Positions 4,914 to 64,000 are shown, counted from the stretch's first letter. The stretch is 64,000 bases of DNA from a virus (IMGVR_UViG_3300044796_000401); one strand, 5' to 3'. Made by a program: numbers and translations. The notes: generated from the letters alone by a model not told the origin.

Positions 4914-6487
4914 TACCTAGCTCCCCCGAACAAGGATTTCTGCCCCAGCCGCAGCCTGTGGACAGGGACTTCATGGATGCCCAGCTTGCCCCAGTCCACC
5001 TTCACAAAGGTCGTCTGCGGCGCTTTCTTGTCGGGCAGGATTTCCAGCACCTTGCCCCGAGCATCGGGATTCGCGTCGAACCACACGCTGTCCCCGACCC
5101 CGATGTCTTCGAGCTTGGCGGCGAACTGAAGGCGGCGCTGGGGCGAAATGCCGAGCAGGATGTTGGCGGTGACGGTGCTTTCGTGCCCCCCGTCCCAATG
5201 CACGGTGGCATAGTTCTTCCCGACCTTCTCCACGGTGCCTTTCAACTCCATGTCCGCGAGCCAGCGGACCCTCATGCCTTTCTTGGCGTCGCGATGCTCT
5301 ATGGCGGTGCGGGCCTTGGCGAGCTTTCCCCTTTCCCGCCGCACCAAGTCCCGTATCGCCGACAGGTCCTCGTCTTCTTCCGGAGACAGGATTTCCCCGG
5401 GCTCAAGGGAGGACTTTTTCCTCGTGACCCAGTTCTTGATCTTGTTCCAGACGTTGCGCAGCTTCTCCATGTACGCGGGCGACTTCTTGCCGGGCTCTTT
5501 TATCTGCTTCCAAAGCCTGCCCAGCATGTCGGACGCGGACTCTTCCTCCTCCGGCTCCTTTTCGGTCTCGTATGGAAGCCCGGTGTGGATGTGCGGCTCG
5601 CCCTCCTCGTGCCGCCTTTTCTCCTCCTGCTTCGTCAGGTCCTCGATGTCGATCTCTTTCTCCTCGGGCTCCGTGGCTGGCTCCTTTTCCGGGGCTTCCT
5701 CCGGGACCTCGAATTCCTCCGGCTCCGGCTCCAGCGCCGGTCCTTCCCGTTCGACCACATCTTCATCGACCTTGCCCGGTGCCTTGCTTTGGTCCGTTAG
5801 CTCCTGCTCGTGCAAGAGGCGGGCCTGCTCCCCGCCCTCCAGTTCCTTGAGCAGCTTGTCCCTGACCTTCTTGTCCTTGATCTTCCGGATTTTCTCCAGT
5901 TCGTACTTCCGGCGCATCTCGTCCTGCTTCTTCCTGAGGCGCTCCGGGGTCTTGCGTTCCTCGTCCTTGTGGCGCTGGATTTCCCGCTCGCGCAATATTT
6001 TCACGATGTTGTGCTGCACGGACGGCAGGATGCGCTCGAAGACCGAGTGGACGTGCTTGCAGATCACGTAGTTCGCCCGGAGGTCGAGGCGCTCGGTCGG
6101 GGCGACGAGCTTCGGGCGCGGCGTGCCGAGCAGCCCGTCCTGCTGGTGGAGGTTCCACTGCGCCCCCCAGTACAAAAATGCCGGGCACGAACAACTGACC
6201 TGAACGTCGAGGTCCGCCGCCTTCTGGGACTCCTGCACCTTCGTCACGTCGAACTGGATGCGCACGTCGTGGCCGGCGGGGTCGCTGTCTTTCTTGTTGC
6301 ATTTCACATTGTAGTGGAGGAACAGCGCCTTGGGATTTGAGTCCAGCAGCTTTGGCGTACAGCCGGGGCGATACTTGAGACTAAACGCATTTGTACTCCG
6401 GATAATTTCGGGTAGCGTAATGGCCGTTTTTACATGTGGGTGTTTGTCCGCCAAAACCACAGGAATTGTGATGAAAAAGCCGTCCAT
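4913..6487 (-). CDS. SWIM-type zinc-finger protein with acidic linker and two C-terminal SH3/Tudor-like modules
   Basis: VSCSCPAFLYWG...VICKH motif; E-rich middle; G.RVRW...GTV.KV...TVHWDGG and GDSVWF...GKV....VKVDWG repeats. Confidence 0.7.
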   Translation of the reverse strand: MDGFFITIPVVLADKHPHVKTAITLPEIIRSTNAFSLKYRPGCTPKLLDSNPKALFLHYNVKCNKKDSDPAGHDVRIQFDVTKVQESQKAADLDVQVSCSCPAFLYWGAQWNLHQQDGLLGTPRPKLVAPTERLDLRANYVICKHVHSVFERILPSVQHNIVKILREREIQRHKDEERKTPERLRKKQDEMRRKYELEKIRKIKDKKVRDKLLKELEGGEQARLLHEQELTDQSKAPGKVDEDVVEREGPALEPEPEEFEVPEEAPEKEPATEPEEKEIDIEDLTKQEEKRRHEEGEPHIHTGLPYETEKEPEEEESASDMLGRLWKQIKEPGKKSPAYMEKLRNVWNKIKNWVTRKKSSLEPGEILSPEEDEDLSAIRDLVRRERGKLAKARTAIEHRDAKKGMRVRWLADMELKGTVEKVGKNYATVHWDGGHESTVTANILLGISPQRRLQFAAKLEDIGVGDSVWFDANPDARGKVLEILPDKKAPQTTFVKVDWGKLGIHEVPVHRLRLGQKSLFGGAR

Positions 6488-42537: not shown

Positions 42538-43290
42538 TCACCGTTCGATCTCCAGCTTCTTGATGTTGTTCGCGGCCGGGATTTCGAGCACGAGGCTCCA
42601 CGCGATCAGGCTGTAGCCCAGCAGGTCGCGGGCGGAATCCTGCAAGGGCTCGAAGTTGGGAACGATGTCCTCTTGGGACGCAAGCTGGGTGTACCGGGCG
42701 ATCTTGTCCCACAGCCGGGGCAGCAATCCCACGACCCCATGCCTGCGGAAGCTCTCGCCGTAGTCCTGCGCCTTGCGGCAAAGATTTTCGGCGGCGATCT
42801 CGATCCGGGCCTTGACCATGTCTTCGGATTCGCAAAAGCAGTCCAAGGGAACGTCCGTGACGACGATCCGTTCCCCGATCAGGCAAAGCAGGGCCGCCAT
42901 GTAAACCATGAAGTGCAGCCCCCGCACATACATGTCGAGGAACATCGGCGGCCACTCGGCCAGCGGGGTCTCGGGATTCACCTTCGCCAGCGCTTCCAGG
43001 ATGAAAAATTGGTAGAGCCACTGGAGGGTGATGTTTTCGGCCGTGAGGCGATCCGGGGGAAGGTGCCCGAGGACAACCTCGGGATCGGGTGTGGCATAGG
43101 TCGGAACCCCCGCCAAATGCGCCACACCCCTCAGGCCGCAATGTGCTAATTGGTCTGCGGACTGAAGCAGGGGGCGGGCCTCGGCGGCGTTTATTTGGCC
43201 GGGGAGACCGCTTACGATACGTGGCCAGTCCTCGCCGCGGAGCATGACGGTGCTGCTTATTTCTTGCCAAAACCGGATGTTGTCGTCCAT
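42538..43290 (-). CDS. Protein with C-terminal DUF1599/Nmad1-like all-alpha nucleotide-handling domain
   Basis: RKAQDYGESF...G...RLWDKIARY...LQDS..DLLGYSLI. Confidence 0.7.
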   Translation of the reverse strand: MDDNIRFWQEISSTVMLRGEDWPRIVSGLPGQINAAEARPLLQSADQLAHCGLRGVAHLAGVPTYATPDPEVVLGHLPPDRLTAENITLQWLYQFFILEALAKVNPETPLAEWPPMFLDMYVRGLHFMVYMAALLCLIGERIVVTDVPLDCFCESEDMVKARIEIAAENLCRKAQDYGESFRRHGVVGLLPRLWDKIARYTQLASQEDIVPNFEPLQDSARDLLGYSLIAWSLVLEIPAANNIKKLEIER

Positions 43291-60123: not shown

Positions 60124-60858
60124 TTAAAGCGAAAGAAAGTCAGGATTTCCAGAACTTTGTGCTCTAGGCGGTGTTTTTCTGATCCTTCTTCGAATGCCAA
60201 ATATGCGGGCGATTGTTATAACGGCCCTTAAACCACACCCAAACTCTTTAGCGATGAGACGATAACTCAAGTCTGGGTTTGTCTTAATGCGGCGGGCAAT
60301 CTCATCCCACGGCAATTTCCTTCTTCGAATGTTGGATTCAGCTACCGCTTGACAGACAGAATCGGGTTTTTTCTTGCCGTTAGAGAGTACAGGCAGTTTC
60401 CAATGTTTCCCAAGAGCGGGCTTTCGTCCTTGTCTTTTCTCCCTTAATTTACGGCGGGTCTCTTCCGATGAGACATAACGTTTATGCGATTCACTCATCC
60501 TTTGCAGGACATCTTTTGAAAAACAATCAACGATTCCCTTGTTCCAAGGGATTCTACCCTTTAGTTTGTTTCGAGTTTCTTCCGATATTGGAGGACGAAT
60601 ACCGCCTGAAACTCCATCTCCACCATCGGTCAAATTACGAAGAATTCCCGTTTTGTTGTTCTTTCGTCCATAGTAGGAAATCAGTAGCTTTTCCGCTTCT
60701 AAAGCCTCTTCTTCTGAGGCGTGCGATTCTATTAGAATGCGTTCTTTCGGTGGGACGGGAACCCAGTGTTGGCTACTAAAGGCACGTTTGCCCATGCCTT
60801 TGCCAACGTAATAAGACGTGCCGTCTTCTCGAAGATAGAGGTATGTGTAAAACCCCAT
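60124..60858 (-). CDS. GIY-YIG-like homing endonuclease with NUMOD3 repeats (start MGFYTY at 60858)
   Basis: FYTYLYLREDGTSYYVGKG...ILRNLTDGGDG; SEETR repeats; terminal HTH-like segment. Confidence 0.85.
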   Translation of the reverse strand: MGFYTYLYLREDGTSYYVGKGMGKRAFSSQHWVPVPPKERILIESHASEEEALEAEKLLISYYGRKNNKTGILRNLTDGGDGVSGGIRPPISEETRNKLKGRIPWNKGIVDCFSKDVLQRMSESHKRYVSSEETRRKLREKRQGRKPALGKHWKLPVLSNGKKKPDSVCQAVAESNIRRRKLPWDEIARRIKTNPDLSYRLIAKEFGCGLRAVITIARIFGIRRRIRKTPPRAQSSGNPDFLSL

Positions 60859-60871
60859 ACCAATCAATACT

Positions 60872-61759
60872 CTAGGAGACCCAATACCGTACACTTTGGA
60901 CGTAGCAGTAGCGGGCGGTTCCGACCGTGGCTTTGCCGCCCCAGCTTGATGAATTGCATCCATAATGGTTGATGTCAATGCCCGGTATATTGCTTCCGGT
61001 GCCCGGCGTCGGAATATTCTTTGTGTTGGTGCCCTGAAAAATTCCATTGAGGTAGTACGCGATCCGACCCGCGCTCCATATGAGTCCGTAATAATTAAAC
61101 CCAGTCACCGCTGTCGGCACGACGAGATAACTATCGCTGCCCGCTTGGCTGATAAAGTTTCCACCGGACGGCTGGGTGTTTCCCGACGAGCCGCTGTTGA
61201 ACCACGTGTCGTACTCTGCCCATGTCGGATGCTGCCCCTCACATTCCGGGGCGTCTATTTCGGCGTAGCCCGTGCCACCGGGATTGTTCTGCGACATAAG
61301 GAATGTGCTGCTGACTCCTCCGCTTATTGCTGTACCCGTGCCTGTTGGCGTTGCAGATGAGGAGCCGAAGCGTGCGCAAAACTCGTATGTCCCGTACCCA
61401 CCTAAGCCCGTACTAGCGAATAATCCCGGAGCAGAAAGTATTTCCGACCCATTCGATACGGTAGCTGACGGCTGGTTCAGCGTTATACACAAGCATGGCG
61501 CTCCGGTGTTTGCGTTGAGGGGGAAGCTGAGATTGGAGGCCAGCATACTAACTGTCGAACCTGCTCCCGCGTAGTTCTGGGCCGTGAAATCCTGTAACAC
61601 CCAGTTCTTCGTGAACGCCGACGATGAGGACGACGTGTAGTTGAATAGGTCCGCGAAGCTCGGGGTTCCCAAGCCAGCAGCTAAGCTGCCGGACGCGGGG
61701 GCGTCCACGACAGCCAACAACGATGTCGGTGCGCTTGGTGCGGTTGCCATCAGAGCCAC
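60872..61759 (-). CDS. Glycoside hydrolase family 16-like protein
   Basis: GYGTYEFCAR, EIDAPE (ExDxxE catalytic motif), YGLIWSAGRIAYYLNG. Confidence 0.75.
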   Translation of the reverse strand: MALMATAPSAPTSLLAVVDAPASGSLAAGLGTPSFADLFNYTSSSSSAFTKNWVLQDFTAQNYAGAGSTVSMLASNLSFPLNANTGAPCLCITLNQPSATVSNGSEILSAPGLFASTGLGGYGTYEFCARFGSSSATPTGTGTAISGGVSSTFLMSQNNPGGTGYAEIDAPECEGQHPTWAEYDTWFNSGSSGNTQPSGGNFISQAGSDSYLVVPTAVTGFNYYGLIWSAGRIAYYLNGIFQGTNTKNIPTPGTGSNIPGIDINHYGCNSSSWGGKATVGTARYCYVQSVRYWVS

Positions 61760-61792
61760 CCAAACAAAGTCTTAAATACTGTCTTGATGGCG

Positions 61793-62074
61793 TTATAGAG
61801 CCGTTGCCACCAAGTTTGTTGGGGCGGTTGGGACAGAAAACGGAACGACGGCCGCCACCTCATTGGACGGCCCGGATGTTCCAGCGGAATTTACGGCGGT
61901 GACGACGTAGTAGTAGGTCGTCCCCTCGACCAAGCTCACAGTATCCACGTAGGACGTGGTGGTAGAAGTAGCTTCTACAGTTTCGCCGCCCTTGGTTGTG
62001 CTGCGCTCGATGTTGTAGGAAGTCGGGGTGCCCGATGTTGGGGCTGTCCACGACAAAGTAACTGAATGTGCCAT
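61793..62074 (-). CDS. Fibronectin type III domain protein (start MAHSVTLSW at 62074)
   Basis: VTLSWTAP...SYNIERST...SYVD...GTTYYYVVTAVNSAG.SGPSNE; GAGGAG RBS. Confidence 0.85.
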   Translation of the reverse strand: MAHSVTLSWTAPTSGTPTSYNIERSTTKGGETVEATSTTTSYVDTVSLVEGTTYYYVVTAVNSAGTSGPSNEVAAVVPFSVPTAPTNLVATAL

Positions 62075-62143
62075 ATGAGTCTCCTCATTGGAAGGAAAGC
62101 CATAGTTGAGAGACTTGGGGGAATTGGTTGGGCGGGAAGGAAT

Positions 62144-62218
62144 TGGTTCCGAGACTTGGATTCGAGCCAAGATAACCAGCTTCAAGGGCTGGTGTCCTAC
62201 CGGTTAGACGACCTCGGA
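62144..62218 (-). tRNA. tRNA-Gln(UUG), atypical (C33, C54)
   Basis: U1-A72 acceptor TCCGAGG/TCTCGGA, anticodon arm CCAGC-CCTTGAA-GCTGG, encoded CCA. Confidence 0.85.
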
Positions 62219-62226
62219 ATAAATCT

Positions 62227-62301
62227 TGGAGCCGTTGGAGGGATTTGAACCCCCGACCCGCTGATTACAGATCAGCCGCTCTGCCTCTGAGCTACAACGG
62301 C
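62227..62301 (-). tRNA. tRNA-Thr(UGU), atypical C33
   Basis: Acceptor GCCGTTG/CAACGGC, anticodon arm GCTGA-TCTGTAA-TCAGC, GTTCAAATCC T-loop, U73, CCA. Confidence 0.88.
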
Positions 62302-62313
62302 AAACTCATAAAC

Positions 62314-62389
62314 TGGAGCCGAGCAGCGGGTTTGAACCGCTATCCGTCGCTTACGAGGCGACCCTACTAGCCAGTTATACTAGCCCGGC
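62314..62389 (-). tRNA. tRNA-Thr(CGU)
   Basis: Acceptor GCCGGGC/GCTCGGC, anticodon arm GTCGC-CTCGTAA-GCGAC, U73, CCA; G10:G25 mismatch. Confidence 0.88.
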
Positions 62390-62395
62390 AAATTC

Positions 62396-62469
62396 TGGTG
62401 CGCGACCTCGGACTTGAACCGAGACCCTTCCCGTAATCGGCGGGATGCTCCGCATTGAGCTAGCCGCGC
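62396..62469 (-). tRNA. tRNA-Ile(GAU)-like, atypical (C33, U37, short D-loop)
   Basis: Cloverleaf with anticodon arm TCCCG-CCGATTA-CGGGA, A73, CCA; keeps the Ile stem determinants C4:G69, U12:A23, C29:G41. Confidence 0.72.
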
Positions 62470-62475
62470 AAACTC

Positions 62476-62628
62476 TTACTTGCAACAGACACCGTTCATA
62501 CCCTTGTACTCCGGCTCCTCTTCGCCGCAGTTACAAGGCTCTGAGTCGGGACAACCATGCCCCACCACAGCGCCGCACGACTCGCACATATCCTGCATTT
62601 GTCCGTTCACTTCTGCCTGCTGCGACAT
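62476..62628 (-). CDS. Small Cys-rich protein (MSQQAEVNG..., 50 aa) at the head of the tRNA operon
   Basis: GAGG before ATG 62628; CESCG, CPD..PCNC, VCCK. Confidence 0.45.
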   Translation of the reverse strand: MSQQAEVNGQMQDMCESCGAVVGHGCPDSEPCNCGEEEPEYKGMNGVCCK

Positions 62629-62651
62629 ACTGCCTCGAAGTGCGCCATAGC

Positions 62652-62682
62652 AAAAAAGCCGCCCTCTTTCGGGGGCGGCCTT
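62652..62682 (-). terminator. Attenuator terminator upstream of the tRNA cluster
   Basis: Minus strand AAGGCCGCCCCCGAAAGAGGGCGGCTTTTTT: 7-bp GC stem, GAAA loop, U6. Confidence 0.85.
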
Positions 62683-62708
62683 AAACATCTGATCTGATTG
62701 GGTTTCTT

Positions 62709-62795
62709 TTAGTTTGCCCATCCAGACAGAAGGCCGCCTGACCACGTTTGTTGCGTGGTAGTGGTGATAATTCGTGTCTGGCGTTGTGTCTTCAT
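62709..62795 (-). CDS. Leader peptide MKTQRQTRIITTTTQQTWSGGLLSGWAN (28 aa)
   Basis: ATG 62795 to TAA 62709, between a consensus promoter and the terminator; 7 Thr, 4 Gln and 2 Ile in the first 17 codons. Confidence 0.8.
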   Translation of the reverse strand: MKTQRQTRIITTTTQQTWSGGLLSGWAN

Positions 62796-62886
62796 GAATT
62801 CAGTTGTTTTATTTGTCCAGGGAACCTGCTTTCGCAGGCTCCTTGATTAGCAGACGGTCTTGGTTTCCCTAAACCATCCGTTCACT

Positions 62887-62915
62887 ATAATACTGGATAG
62901 CGGGAAAACTGTCAA
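62887..62915 (-). promoter_or_regulatory. Sigma70-type promoter of the leader/tRNA operon
   Basis: Minus strand TTGACA-17 nt-TATTAT. Confidence 0.8.
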
Positions 62916-62957
62916 GAACTGGTTTTGGGGATTACCCCTTTGAGTCCACAAGCCGGG

Positions 62958-64000
62958 CTAGCCCCAAGCGGCCACGAGGCCCTGCTCGGAGCACAGGGGG
63001 CAGCGCACGCTGGGCTTCGGGGGAATCTGCTTGCCGGTTTTCTTGCTGAACCACCCCCTGACATGCCAGCGGTTGTGGTTGTTTTTTGCTGTTGCTTCCG
63101 CATGCGCCTTCTGGTACTCGGGGTCGGCGGCCACCTTCTTCATGGCTTCCTGCCACTCGGGGCTGGCGGTACGCCTCGCAATCCCCTCCGCGTTCGCCTT
63201 CTGCCACTCGGGGCTGGCGGTACGCCTCGCAATCCCCTCCGCGTTCGCCTTCCGCCACTCGGGGCTGGCGGCCTTCTTGCGGTTCGCTTCCGAGACGTTC
63301 TTCCGCCACTCGGGGCTGGCGAACATTTCCGCCATTTTTTGCTGGTACTCGGGGCTGGCGGCCTTCTTGCGGTTCGCTTCCGAGACGTTCTGCTGCCACT
63401 CCGGGCTGGCGGTCATTTCCGCATGCGCCTTCCGCCACTCGGGGCTGGCGAACATTTCCGCCATTTTTTGCTGGTACTCGGGGTCGGCGTGCATCTTGCG
63501 CAGCGCTTCCGCGTGCGCCTTCTGCCACTCGGGGTCGGCGTGCATCTTGCGCAGCGCTTCCGCGTTCGCCTGCTGCCACTCGGGGCTGGCGTGCAGCTTG
63601 CGCATCGCTTCCACGACGTTCTGCTGCCACTCCGGGCTGGCGGTCATTTCCGCATGCGCCTTCCGCCACTCGGGGCTGGCGGTACGCCTCGCAATCCCCT
63701 CCGCGTTCGCCTTCTGCCACTCGGGGTCGGCGGCCTTCTTGCGGTTCGCTTCGGTCACCCTGCGAAGCTGGTCTTCGGTGAATTTGTAGCCGGATGGTCC
63801 ATCCCCTCCGTCCGTTCTATTGCGGAGGATTCCCGTCCCGTTGTCCTGGCGACCGAACAACTCGATCAGCGCTATCTCGGATTCGAAGGCTTCCGCTTCG
63901 TTCAGCATCGGGAAGATGACGATGCGGGAGCGGTCCTTCGGGGGACGGACATTGTGCTGGGCGGAACAAGCTCGATTGCCTGAGCCTTTCCCTGCGTAGT
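62958..64000 (-). CDS. GIY-YIG-like endonuclease with tandem ASPEW repeats, partial (start lies beyond the window)
   Basis: The frame is open to the right edge (YAGKGSG...RIVIFPMLNEAEAFESE...ILRNRTDGGDG), homologous to the 60124..60858 nuclease domain. Confidence 0.8.
   Translation of the reverse strand, partial: YAGKGSGNRACSAQHNVRPPKDRSRIVIFPMLNEAEAFESEIALIELFGRQDNGTGILRNRTDGGDGPSGYKFTEDQLRRVTEANRKKAADPEWQKANAEGIARRTASPEWRKAHAEMTASPEWQQNVVEAMRKLHASPEWQQANAEALRKMHADPEWQKAHAEALRKMHADPEYQQKMAEMFASPEWRKAHAEMTASPEWQQNVSEANRKKAASPEYQQKMAEMFASPEWRKNVSEANRKKAASPEWRKANAEGIARRTASPEWQKANAEGIARRTASPEWQEAMKKVAADPEYQKAHAEATAKNNHNRWHVRGWFSKKTGKQIPPKPSVRCPLCSEQGLVAAWG
63115..63745 (-). repeat. Imperfect in-frame tandem repeats (about 33-51 nt units around CCACTCGGGGCTGGCG); bounds approximate
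   Basis: More than a dozen (A/S)(S/D)PE(W/Y)(Q/R)x units visible in both DNA and protein. Confidence 0.85.

Follow-up and report, generated by a model that had tools for sequence, protein, structure and literature searches.

The window considered here is the whole 64,000-nucleotide (nt) stretch of DNA from the virus IMGVR_UViG_3300044796_000401, part of a very large phage which encodes a tail sheath, a helicase and several homing endonucleases and whose DNA was detected in peat, pond and freshwater metagenomes (14 studies). Blastn and tblastn searches of 50,697 deposited phage genomes gave no relative beyond similarity of transfer RNA (tRNA) genes, and neither an exact 39-mer nor a tRNA-Ile 26-mer occurred in IMG/VR. 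The locus of interest occupies 62144-62915 on the minus strand, where a promoter is followed by a short open reading frame (ORF) rich in threonine (Thr), glutamine (Gln) and isoleucine (Ile) codons, an intrinsic terminator and an array of four tRNA genes (Table 1). In the order of transcription these were called by ARAGORN as tRNA-Ile(GAU), Thr(CGU), Thr(UGU) and Gln(UUG), with Rfam tRNA scores of 47-66 bits, and an Rfam scan of 61500-64000 (E <= 10) returned the four tRNAs and otherwise chance-level matches only. An original prediction, generated by a model from the sequence, had described the locus as a thrL-type leader-peptide attenuator whose codons match the downstream tRNAs. Its promoter, its 28-residue ORF with the individual codon counts, its GC hairpin followed by six U residues, its perfect antiterminator of 9 base pairs (bp) and its tRNA cargo were all recovered in our analysis.

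Table 1. Features of the tRNA locus in the window, listed in the direction of transcription.
Feature	Position	Strand	Remarks
Promoter, TTGACA-17-TATTAT	62887-62915	-	11 of 12 consensus matches in promoter scan
Structured 5' untranslated region (5' UTR), about 85 nt	62796-62880	-	between promoter and ATG; absent from the original prediction
Leader ORF, 28 codons plus stop, MKTQRQTRIITTTTQQTWSGGLLSGWAN	62709-62795	-	by translation
Putative sensing zone, codons 3-17	62745-62789	-	13 Thr/Gln/Ile codons and two Arg codons
Protector hairpin	62722-62781	-	within the minimum-free-energy fold
Antiterminator strand GGCGGCCUU, codons 20-22	62730-62738	-	complementary to terminator 5' arm
Intrinsic terminator, AAGGCCGCCCCC-GAAAG-AGGGCGGCUUU then U run	62652-62682	-	10-bp stem, -18.6 kcal/mol, T6
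Remnant ORF MAHFEAVCRSRQK, 13 codons	62607-62648	-	start of the DUF6915-like gene (about 123 amino acids) of relatives
Acidic Cys-rich ORF, 50 codons, ends MNGVCCK	62476-62628	-	inside the putatively gated transcript
tRNA-Ile(GAU)	62396-62469	-	ARAGORN and Rfam
tRNA-Thr(CGU)	62314-62389	-	ARAGORN and Rfam
tRNA-Thr(UGU)	62227-62301	-	ARAGORN and Rfam
tRNA-Gln(UUG)	62144-62218	-	ARAGORN and Rfam

Thr, Gln and Ile account for 13 of the 16 leader codons that follow Met (binomial P = 2e-8 against a background of 0.163 taken from the window's long ORFs), with Thr encoded by ACA (two), ACC (two), ACT (one) and ACG (two), Gln by CAA (three) and CAG (one) and Ile by ATT and ATC (one each). The antiterminator strand (62738-62730) can pair over 9 bp with the terminator 5' arm AAGGCCGCC (62682-62674) at -18.6 kcal/mol, which is better than 98% of shuffled sequences (z = -2.6). 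The 246-nt leader region as a whole folds at z = -5.8 relative to shuffles, and its best fold includes both the terminator and the protector hairpin, in which CCAGACA-C-GAA (62781-62771) pairs with UUCUGUCUGG (62731-62722) and the inner pairs join the GGCGG of the antiterminator to Ile and Thr codons. The promoter -10 element sits within the motif CCAGTATTATAGT, which is also found upstream of the leaders of relatives, and a scan from 62915 to the tRNAs found no second consensus promoter, non-consensus types being outside the reach of the scan.

Searches with the tail sheath identified 35 IMG/VR relatives at 41-75% identity. These are uncultured jumbo phages; several of their contigs are 120-456 kb in length and carry 10 to 64 tRNA genes each, split over several arrays according to amino acid. 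An Ile-Thr-Thr-(Thr)-Gln array is conserved in relatives identified through the tail sheath (57-75% identity), and in the IMG/VR contigs of ten distinct relatives it is preceded by a short ORF with an ATG start and a high content of Thr, Gln and Ile and then by an intrinsic terminator. At least two further metagenome contigs contain a Thr/Gln/Ile leader with a terminator, and in one of them the tRNA array follows the leader. The leader peptides (MKQTLQTRTTTQQITIT, MNYQRQTRITTTTTQ, MTSQTRTTTSTQRITT, MNQTPTTRTTTTQRIT, MRLSAQTRITTTTTQT, MTQSTQTRITTTTTTII) have diverged in sequence and kept their composition; at one aligned position the codon is either ATT (Ile) or ACT (Thr), and variation occurs at third codon positions. 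A consensus fold of 12 Ile-Thr-Gln leaders recovered the terminator, in which two pairs are preserved by changes to both of their bases.

One of the two Arg codons in the sensing zone is CGA (62772-62774) and is invariant across all 12 Ile-Thr-Gln leaders (alignment A1, columns 22-24). CGA makes up 14 of the 26 Arg codons in the 10 leaders counted, as against 12% in genome usage, and the invariant codon could serve to slow the ribosome by design, to sense tRNA-Arg(ACG) or to form part of the protector stem. A cultured Tunturiibacter phage, Tunturi_5, shares tRNA-Thr similarity, but its tRNA arrays are mixed and have no such leader, and it does not serve as a model for this system.

Five other classes of tRNA array in the relatives are likewise preceded by a leader enriched in the amino acids of its own array. 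Tyr/Leu arrays lie behind the leaders LRLYSLYLSY, LYLYLLL, LRLYSYL and LSLYYLL, Pro/Met/Phe arrays behind MRPTPMFRPCTP, Val/Ala/Gly/Asp/Cys/Glu arrays behind DGVVVTVVCAGVV, DSGTAAECCVAAEG, GAVGAVAAVCEAEG and VAAVAVVGVVAAAEAGCAGED, a Ser array behind SSSSSSS and a Gln(CUG)/His/Arg/Asn/Lys array behind RKHQRRNNRW. So that no leader was picked by eye, we paired leaders and arrays automatically by taking every terminator of -13 kcal/mol or lower with a same-strand tRNA within 900 nt together with the nearest upstream small ORF, which gave 28 units, noise included. The summed cognate enrichment of these units was 54.3, compared with 18.1 +/- 5.3 for permuted arrays, and none of 100,000 permutations was as high. 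In a 6 x 6 matrix of leader class against array class the diagonal was the maximum of every row and every column (chance 1/720). Cognate residues made up 48% of the ORF frame and 14% and 18% of the other two frames, and all curated leaders begin with ATG.

The match extends to individual codons. Leaders before tRNA-Gln(UUG) contain CAA 22 times and CAG 5 times, set against a genome usage of 40:60, while the sole leader before tRNA-Gln(CUG) uses CAG, and ATA is absent from leaders paired with tRNA-Ile(GAU). For G34 tRNAs the leaders favour the U-ending wobble codon by 36 to 12, counter to genome usage. A search of related phages for leaders upstream of tRNA clusters, with codons that track the anticodons, had been put forward with the original prediction; leaders matched their arrays by amino acid in six array classes and by anticodon in the CAA/UUG and CAG/CUG pairs.

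In all 21 leaders that were analysed structurally the terminator 5' arm has a pairing partner in the 3' part of the ORF, with energies of -8.6 to -27 kcal/mol and a mean z of -2.2 relative to shuffles. The terminators matched in this way are of the types GCCGCC, GAGGACGC, GACCCGGAGCC, GCCGACC and CAGAGGCC, and since the terminator sequences differ strongly between classes the antiterminator pairing covaries with them. Most of the 21 have a GTATTAT-type -10 element upstream. In 13 of the 21 units only 6-19 nt separate the end of the U run from the first tRNA, so that a second promoter would not fit there. Leaders of the Pro/Met/Phe class were excluded from the structural statistics because they are followed by a conserved complex RNA structure (GCUGCUAGGC...AAUUCCAA...) and no simple hairpin terminator; they lie in L066 (about 5587-5785), L069 (5020-5199) and L074 (5196-5372) in the tRNA orientation, and their peptide (MRPTPMFRPCTPTVRGG) is well conserved.

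The response of these structures to a ribosome was modelled at equilibrium, with a ribosome parked at each codon in turn, and for a nascent transcript which ends before the 3' arm of the terminator has been made. At equilibrium the terminator was favoured in every leader once the ribosome was in the last 10-12 codons, and in many relatives it was replaced when the ribosome stood on the test codons. In the window it stayed favoured despite a stalled ribosome, and no flip was seen either in G013, G015, the Tyr/Leu leader of G003 or the Gln/His/Arg/Asn/Lys leader. Because equilibrium folding favours the terminator of the window and its antiterminator and terminator are equal in energy, at -18.6 kcal/mol each, the switch in the window would have to be kinetic, that is co-transcriptional, and since the equilibrium model fails to flip the window and some relatives the nascent-transcript model was adopted. 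This model was consistent in 21 of 21 leaders: the terminator 5' arm was 60-99% paired as long as the ribosomal A site had not passed beyond the cognate run, and its pairing dropped to 0-40% directly afterwards. The switch codon correlated with the end of the cognate run (Spearman 0.92); leaving the Val/Ala/Gly class aside, 13 of 16 leaders switched no more than one codon away from that end. Before the switch 233 of 368 residues (63%) were cognate, and after it 72 of 266 (27%; Fisher P = 8e-20). On the folding check with blocked leader codons that had accompanied the original prediction the two models differ: at equilibrium the window terminator stays, and in the nascent model the switch coincides with the close of the cognate run.

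The window contains an upstream ORF on the same transcript as the tRNAs, a cluster of cognate codons, a terminator ahead of the cargo and a competing antiterminator, and we are fairly confident that a ribosome-mediated (leader-peptide) transcription attenuator gates this phage tRNA operon. The thrL-type architecture of the original prediction is upheld, and far more strongly by the comparison with relatives than by the window alone. The phage probably makes its Ile, Thr, Thr and Gln tRNAs only when ribosomes read those codons slowly. Transcription would start at the 62915-62887 promoter, and a ribosome would translate the 28-codon leader while RNA polymerase moves on. When charged tRNA is scarce, the Thr, Gln and Ile codons at positions 3-17 would be read slowly and the ribosome would be held on the 5' half of the leader, leaving GGCGGCCUU free to pair with the emerging terminator 5' arm; the terminator would be blocked and the polymerase would read on into tRNA-Ile, Thr, Thr and Gln. 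With fast decoding the ribosome would cover the antiterminator strand one or two codons past the run, the terminator would form and transcription would stop at 62652. As the products are tRNAs that read the test codons, the circuit would be a negative-feedback, self-limiting controller of tRNA supply.

The analysis shows the parts, their conservation, the match of leaders to tRNAs in six array classes and the geometry of the pairings; that the leader is translated, that the coupling is kinetic and what sets off the switch in nature are inferred. The trigger could be loss of host tRNAs through shut-off or anticodon nucleases, simple homeostasis or amino-acid starvation. Beyond the single locus we advance, tentatively and as a possibility of real but not preponderant weight, a modular controller in which tRNAs are sorted into operons that are each gated by a leader sampling its own codons, often the slower wobble codons, such that the phage would detect the loss of particular host tRNAs (for example to anticodon nucleases or shut-off), replace exactly those on demand and have feedback turn the operon off again.

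Several observations weigh against attenuation as the account of this locus, among them the equilibrium folding of the window described above. In the nascent model without a ribosome the window 5' arm is still mostly paired (0.75). The protector hairpin, which together with the antiterminator formed the mutually exclusive pairings of the original prediction, does appear in the best fold, but its overlap with the antiterminator is only partial. Three of the 13 test codons (ACC twice and ACT) are best read by tRNA-Thr(GGU), which is missing from the array of the window and present in the array of relatives. Two relatives, G004 and G007, carry the Ile-Thr-Gln array without this leader; orthologous loci that lack the ORF or the covarying antiterminator were one of the refuting conditions named with the original prediction, and the ten relatives described above keep both leader and terminator. 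The pooled statistics draw on homologous, non-independent leaders, a problem which the class-level matrix removes. The sole RNA library, a peat metatranscriptome, contains patchy low-depth contigs (depth 4-7) and offers a hint only: exact contigs cover 62693-62975, reaching 60 nt upstream of the promoter, and 62146-62322, and none covers 62323-62692. Finally, the window leader has no Shine-Dalgarno sequence before its ATG, which is preceded by an A-rich stretch and by the structured 85-nt 5' UTR.

This 5' UTR holds two hairpins, at about 62880-62851 and 62845-62818, the second of which contains CCUGCGAAAGCAGG. Relatives mostly have a 5' UTR of 0-25 nt or a leaderless start, and a comparably long one was found in G005 only; the leaders of several relatives are leaderless, with the ATG 7 nt after the -10 box. 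Only about a third of the genes of the phage have a Shine-Dalgarno-like motif and many genes of the window begin 7 nt after a GTATTAT-type box, and for this reason the missing Shine-Dalgarno sequence carries little weight. More generally, GTATTAT or GGTATTAT -10-like motifs were seen 7-25 nt before many start codons, for example those of the minus-strand ORFs starting at 43270 and 9468 and of leaders in L066-L076, which suggests phage promoters that make messenger RNAs (mRNAs) with no leader or a very short one.

The terminator of the window lies 182 nt away from tRNA-Ile, and the interval holds two small ORFs that did not feature in the original prediction. In relatives a gene of about 123 amino acids (MAHF..HCRDCERLLG...) directly follows the terminator, as at L072:2521-2889 (minus strand) and L126:2313-2675 (plus strand), and the only Pfam match of this gene is a sub-threshold one to DUF6915. 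Small acidic Cys-rich ORFs similar to that of the window occur among the tRNAs of relatives (L068, L079, L081) and end in MNGPCC, MNGRCCK or HGPCC; Pfam gave no match for the Cys-rich ORF. In contigs L079 and L127, which have an Ile-Thr-Gln array without the leader, we noted tRNA-like sequences with acceptor and T arms and with long insertions or odd anticodon loops, uncalled by ARAGORN, which lie 100-330 nt upstream of tRNA-Lys and between a Zn-ribbon ORF and tRNA-Ile. One or two tRNAs with a CUA anticodon (amber suppressors, labelled 'Pyl' by ARAGORN) are present in L068, L072, L080, L082, L083, L119, L123, L124 and L126, and these relatives also carry tRNAs with four-base anticodons (CUAG, GCAA), a hint that TAG may be reassigned or frameshifts suppressed in this clade of phages. 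By our reading of the translations, the tRNA module of the window is flanked by genes with GIY-YIG homing-endonuclease-like N-termini at 60124-61047 and from 62958 to beyond 64000, both on the minus strand. The upstream gene of the two contains about 10 tandem repeats of the SPEW(Q/R)KA(N/H)AE type, and length variants (joints) of the repeat region were found among metagenome contigs.

The competing explanations differ in how much of the proposed device they retain. The same attenuator might report amino-acid starvation, through uncharged tRNA, or merely time the expression of the tRNAs during infection, and not respond to tRNA loss to host defence. Leader-peptide attenuators such as the trp, his and thr leaders answer to the supply of charged tRNA at the A site whatever its cause, and our results fit all causes of low charged-tRNA supply alike. 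The sorting of the arrays by amino acid, each with a sensor of its own, speaks against this explanation, and as additional tRNA would not relieve amino-acid starvation, it is more economical to assume feedback on how much tRNA there is. We think a signal of this other kind unlikely, though well worth keeping in mind. A different proposal retains the RNA switch and dispenses with translation: like a T-box specifier, the triplet run would bind the anticodons of tRNAs directly and in this way stabilize the antiterminator. The triplets are indeed complementary to the anticodons of the downstream tRNAs, and the window leader lacks a Shine-Dalgarno sequence. Every leader is, however, an intact ATG-to-stop ORF with the cognate triplets in phase (48% against 14% and 18%), several are leaderless mRNAs that begin at AUG, and the Rfam scan (E <= 10) showed no T-box or other riboswitch match. 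The toggling of ATT and ACT between cognate amino acids and the variation at third positions are also as expected for decoding, and direct binding of tRNA appears to us very improbable.

Two further explanations take the tRNAs out of the control of the leader or make them incidental to it. The ORF and terminator could belong to an unrelated small gene or small RNA, with another promoter for the tRNAs and a codon match that arose by coincidence or composition bias, and both the 182-nt interval with its two small ORFs and the metatranscriptome contigs, which cover leader and tRNAs and not the stretch between, would suit such an arrangement. We consider it extremely unlikely in view of the lack of a consensus promoter between the window terminator and tRNA-Ile, the gap of 6-19 nt between terminator and tRNA in 13 of 21 units, the conserved geometry of the antiterminator and a leader-array match which holds in six classes and exceeds all permutations. 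The switch might instead chiefly control the protein genes behind the terminator, DUF6915-like and small Cys-rich, with the tRNAs as passengers. Several relatives do have the DUF6915-like gene between terminator and first tRNA, and the window keeps its first 13 codons together with the Cys-rich ORF. The composition of the leaders nevertheless tracks the tRNAs and not these proteins, many units have a tRNA directly after the terminator, and the DUF6915-like gene of the window is a remnant, all of which makes primary control of the proteins highly doubtful. Attenuation that gates the tRNAs themselves is the reading we retain.

Bacterial and phage tRNA genes are usually treated as promoter-controlled. 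The author of the original prediction knew of no described case in which the regulated cargo is tRNA genes, and our full-text literature search agrees: it turned up no phage or bacterial tRNA gene described as being under leader-peptide attenuation, a mechanism for which we found descriptions only in genes of amino-acid biosynthesis, a few synthetases and resistance. As far as we can tell, attenuation of tRNA genes is an unpublished form of control, one that works like the known thr, ilv and pheST leaders. If our reading is correct, a codon-matched attenuator placed before every tRNA operon would sense decoding capacity directly and would explain why the tRNAs of these phages are sorted by amino acid. 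The debated role of phage tRNAs would become testable as well, since which tRNA losses open which switch would decide between a role in codon supply and one in replacing tRNAs that host defence has destroyed. Small and modular as they are, the parts could also serve as codon-specific or tRNA-specific reporters.

Phage tRNA arrays have been described as replacing host tRNAs cut by anticodon nucleases (eLife 2023, PMC10264068). The arrays described here resemble those as sets of phage tRNAs thought to sustain translation after host tRNA loss and differ from them in that, while we found no regulatory sensor described for such arrays, each array here is sorted by amino acid and has its own codon-matched leader. 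The proposed switch shares with T-box riboswitches the sensing of tRNA charging state, a terminator/antiterminator decision and translation-related genes as targets; a T-box binds one tRNA directly and without translation, whereas the phage leader is an in-phase ORF, and the T-box covariance model gave no match at E <= 10.

The closest parallels in architecture are the thrL, ilvGMEDA and ilvBN leaders of E. coli and Salmonella, in which a short ORF carries a codon run that covers more than one amino acid (Thr and Ile in thrL) and the position of the ribosome decides between alternative antiterminator and terminator hairpins. The phage leaders share with them the multi-amino-acid codon run, the alternative hairpins and, as predicted, the dependence on ribosome position. 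With the Rfam leader families (E <= 10) only Phe_leader was matched, at 20.8 bits against a cut-off of 55 and over the terminator only, and the locus did not qualify as a Thr_leader. Unlike the thrL and ilv leaders, the phage leader is followed by tRNA genes and not by genes for biosynthetic enzymes, and its antiterminator strand is part of the ORF itself, at a distance of 18 nt from the stop codon. In the pheST attenuator, with its pheM leader, phenylalanyl-tRNA synthetase is a component of decoding placed under leader-peptide control by the codons that are tested. The phage system would be like pheST in controlling decoding machinery through the codons it serves, but where pheST concerns a bacterial synthetase and one amino acid, the phage would control the tRNAs themselves, with one such device for each tRNA operon and its set of amino acids.

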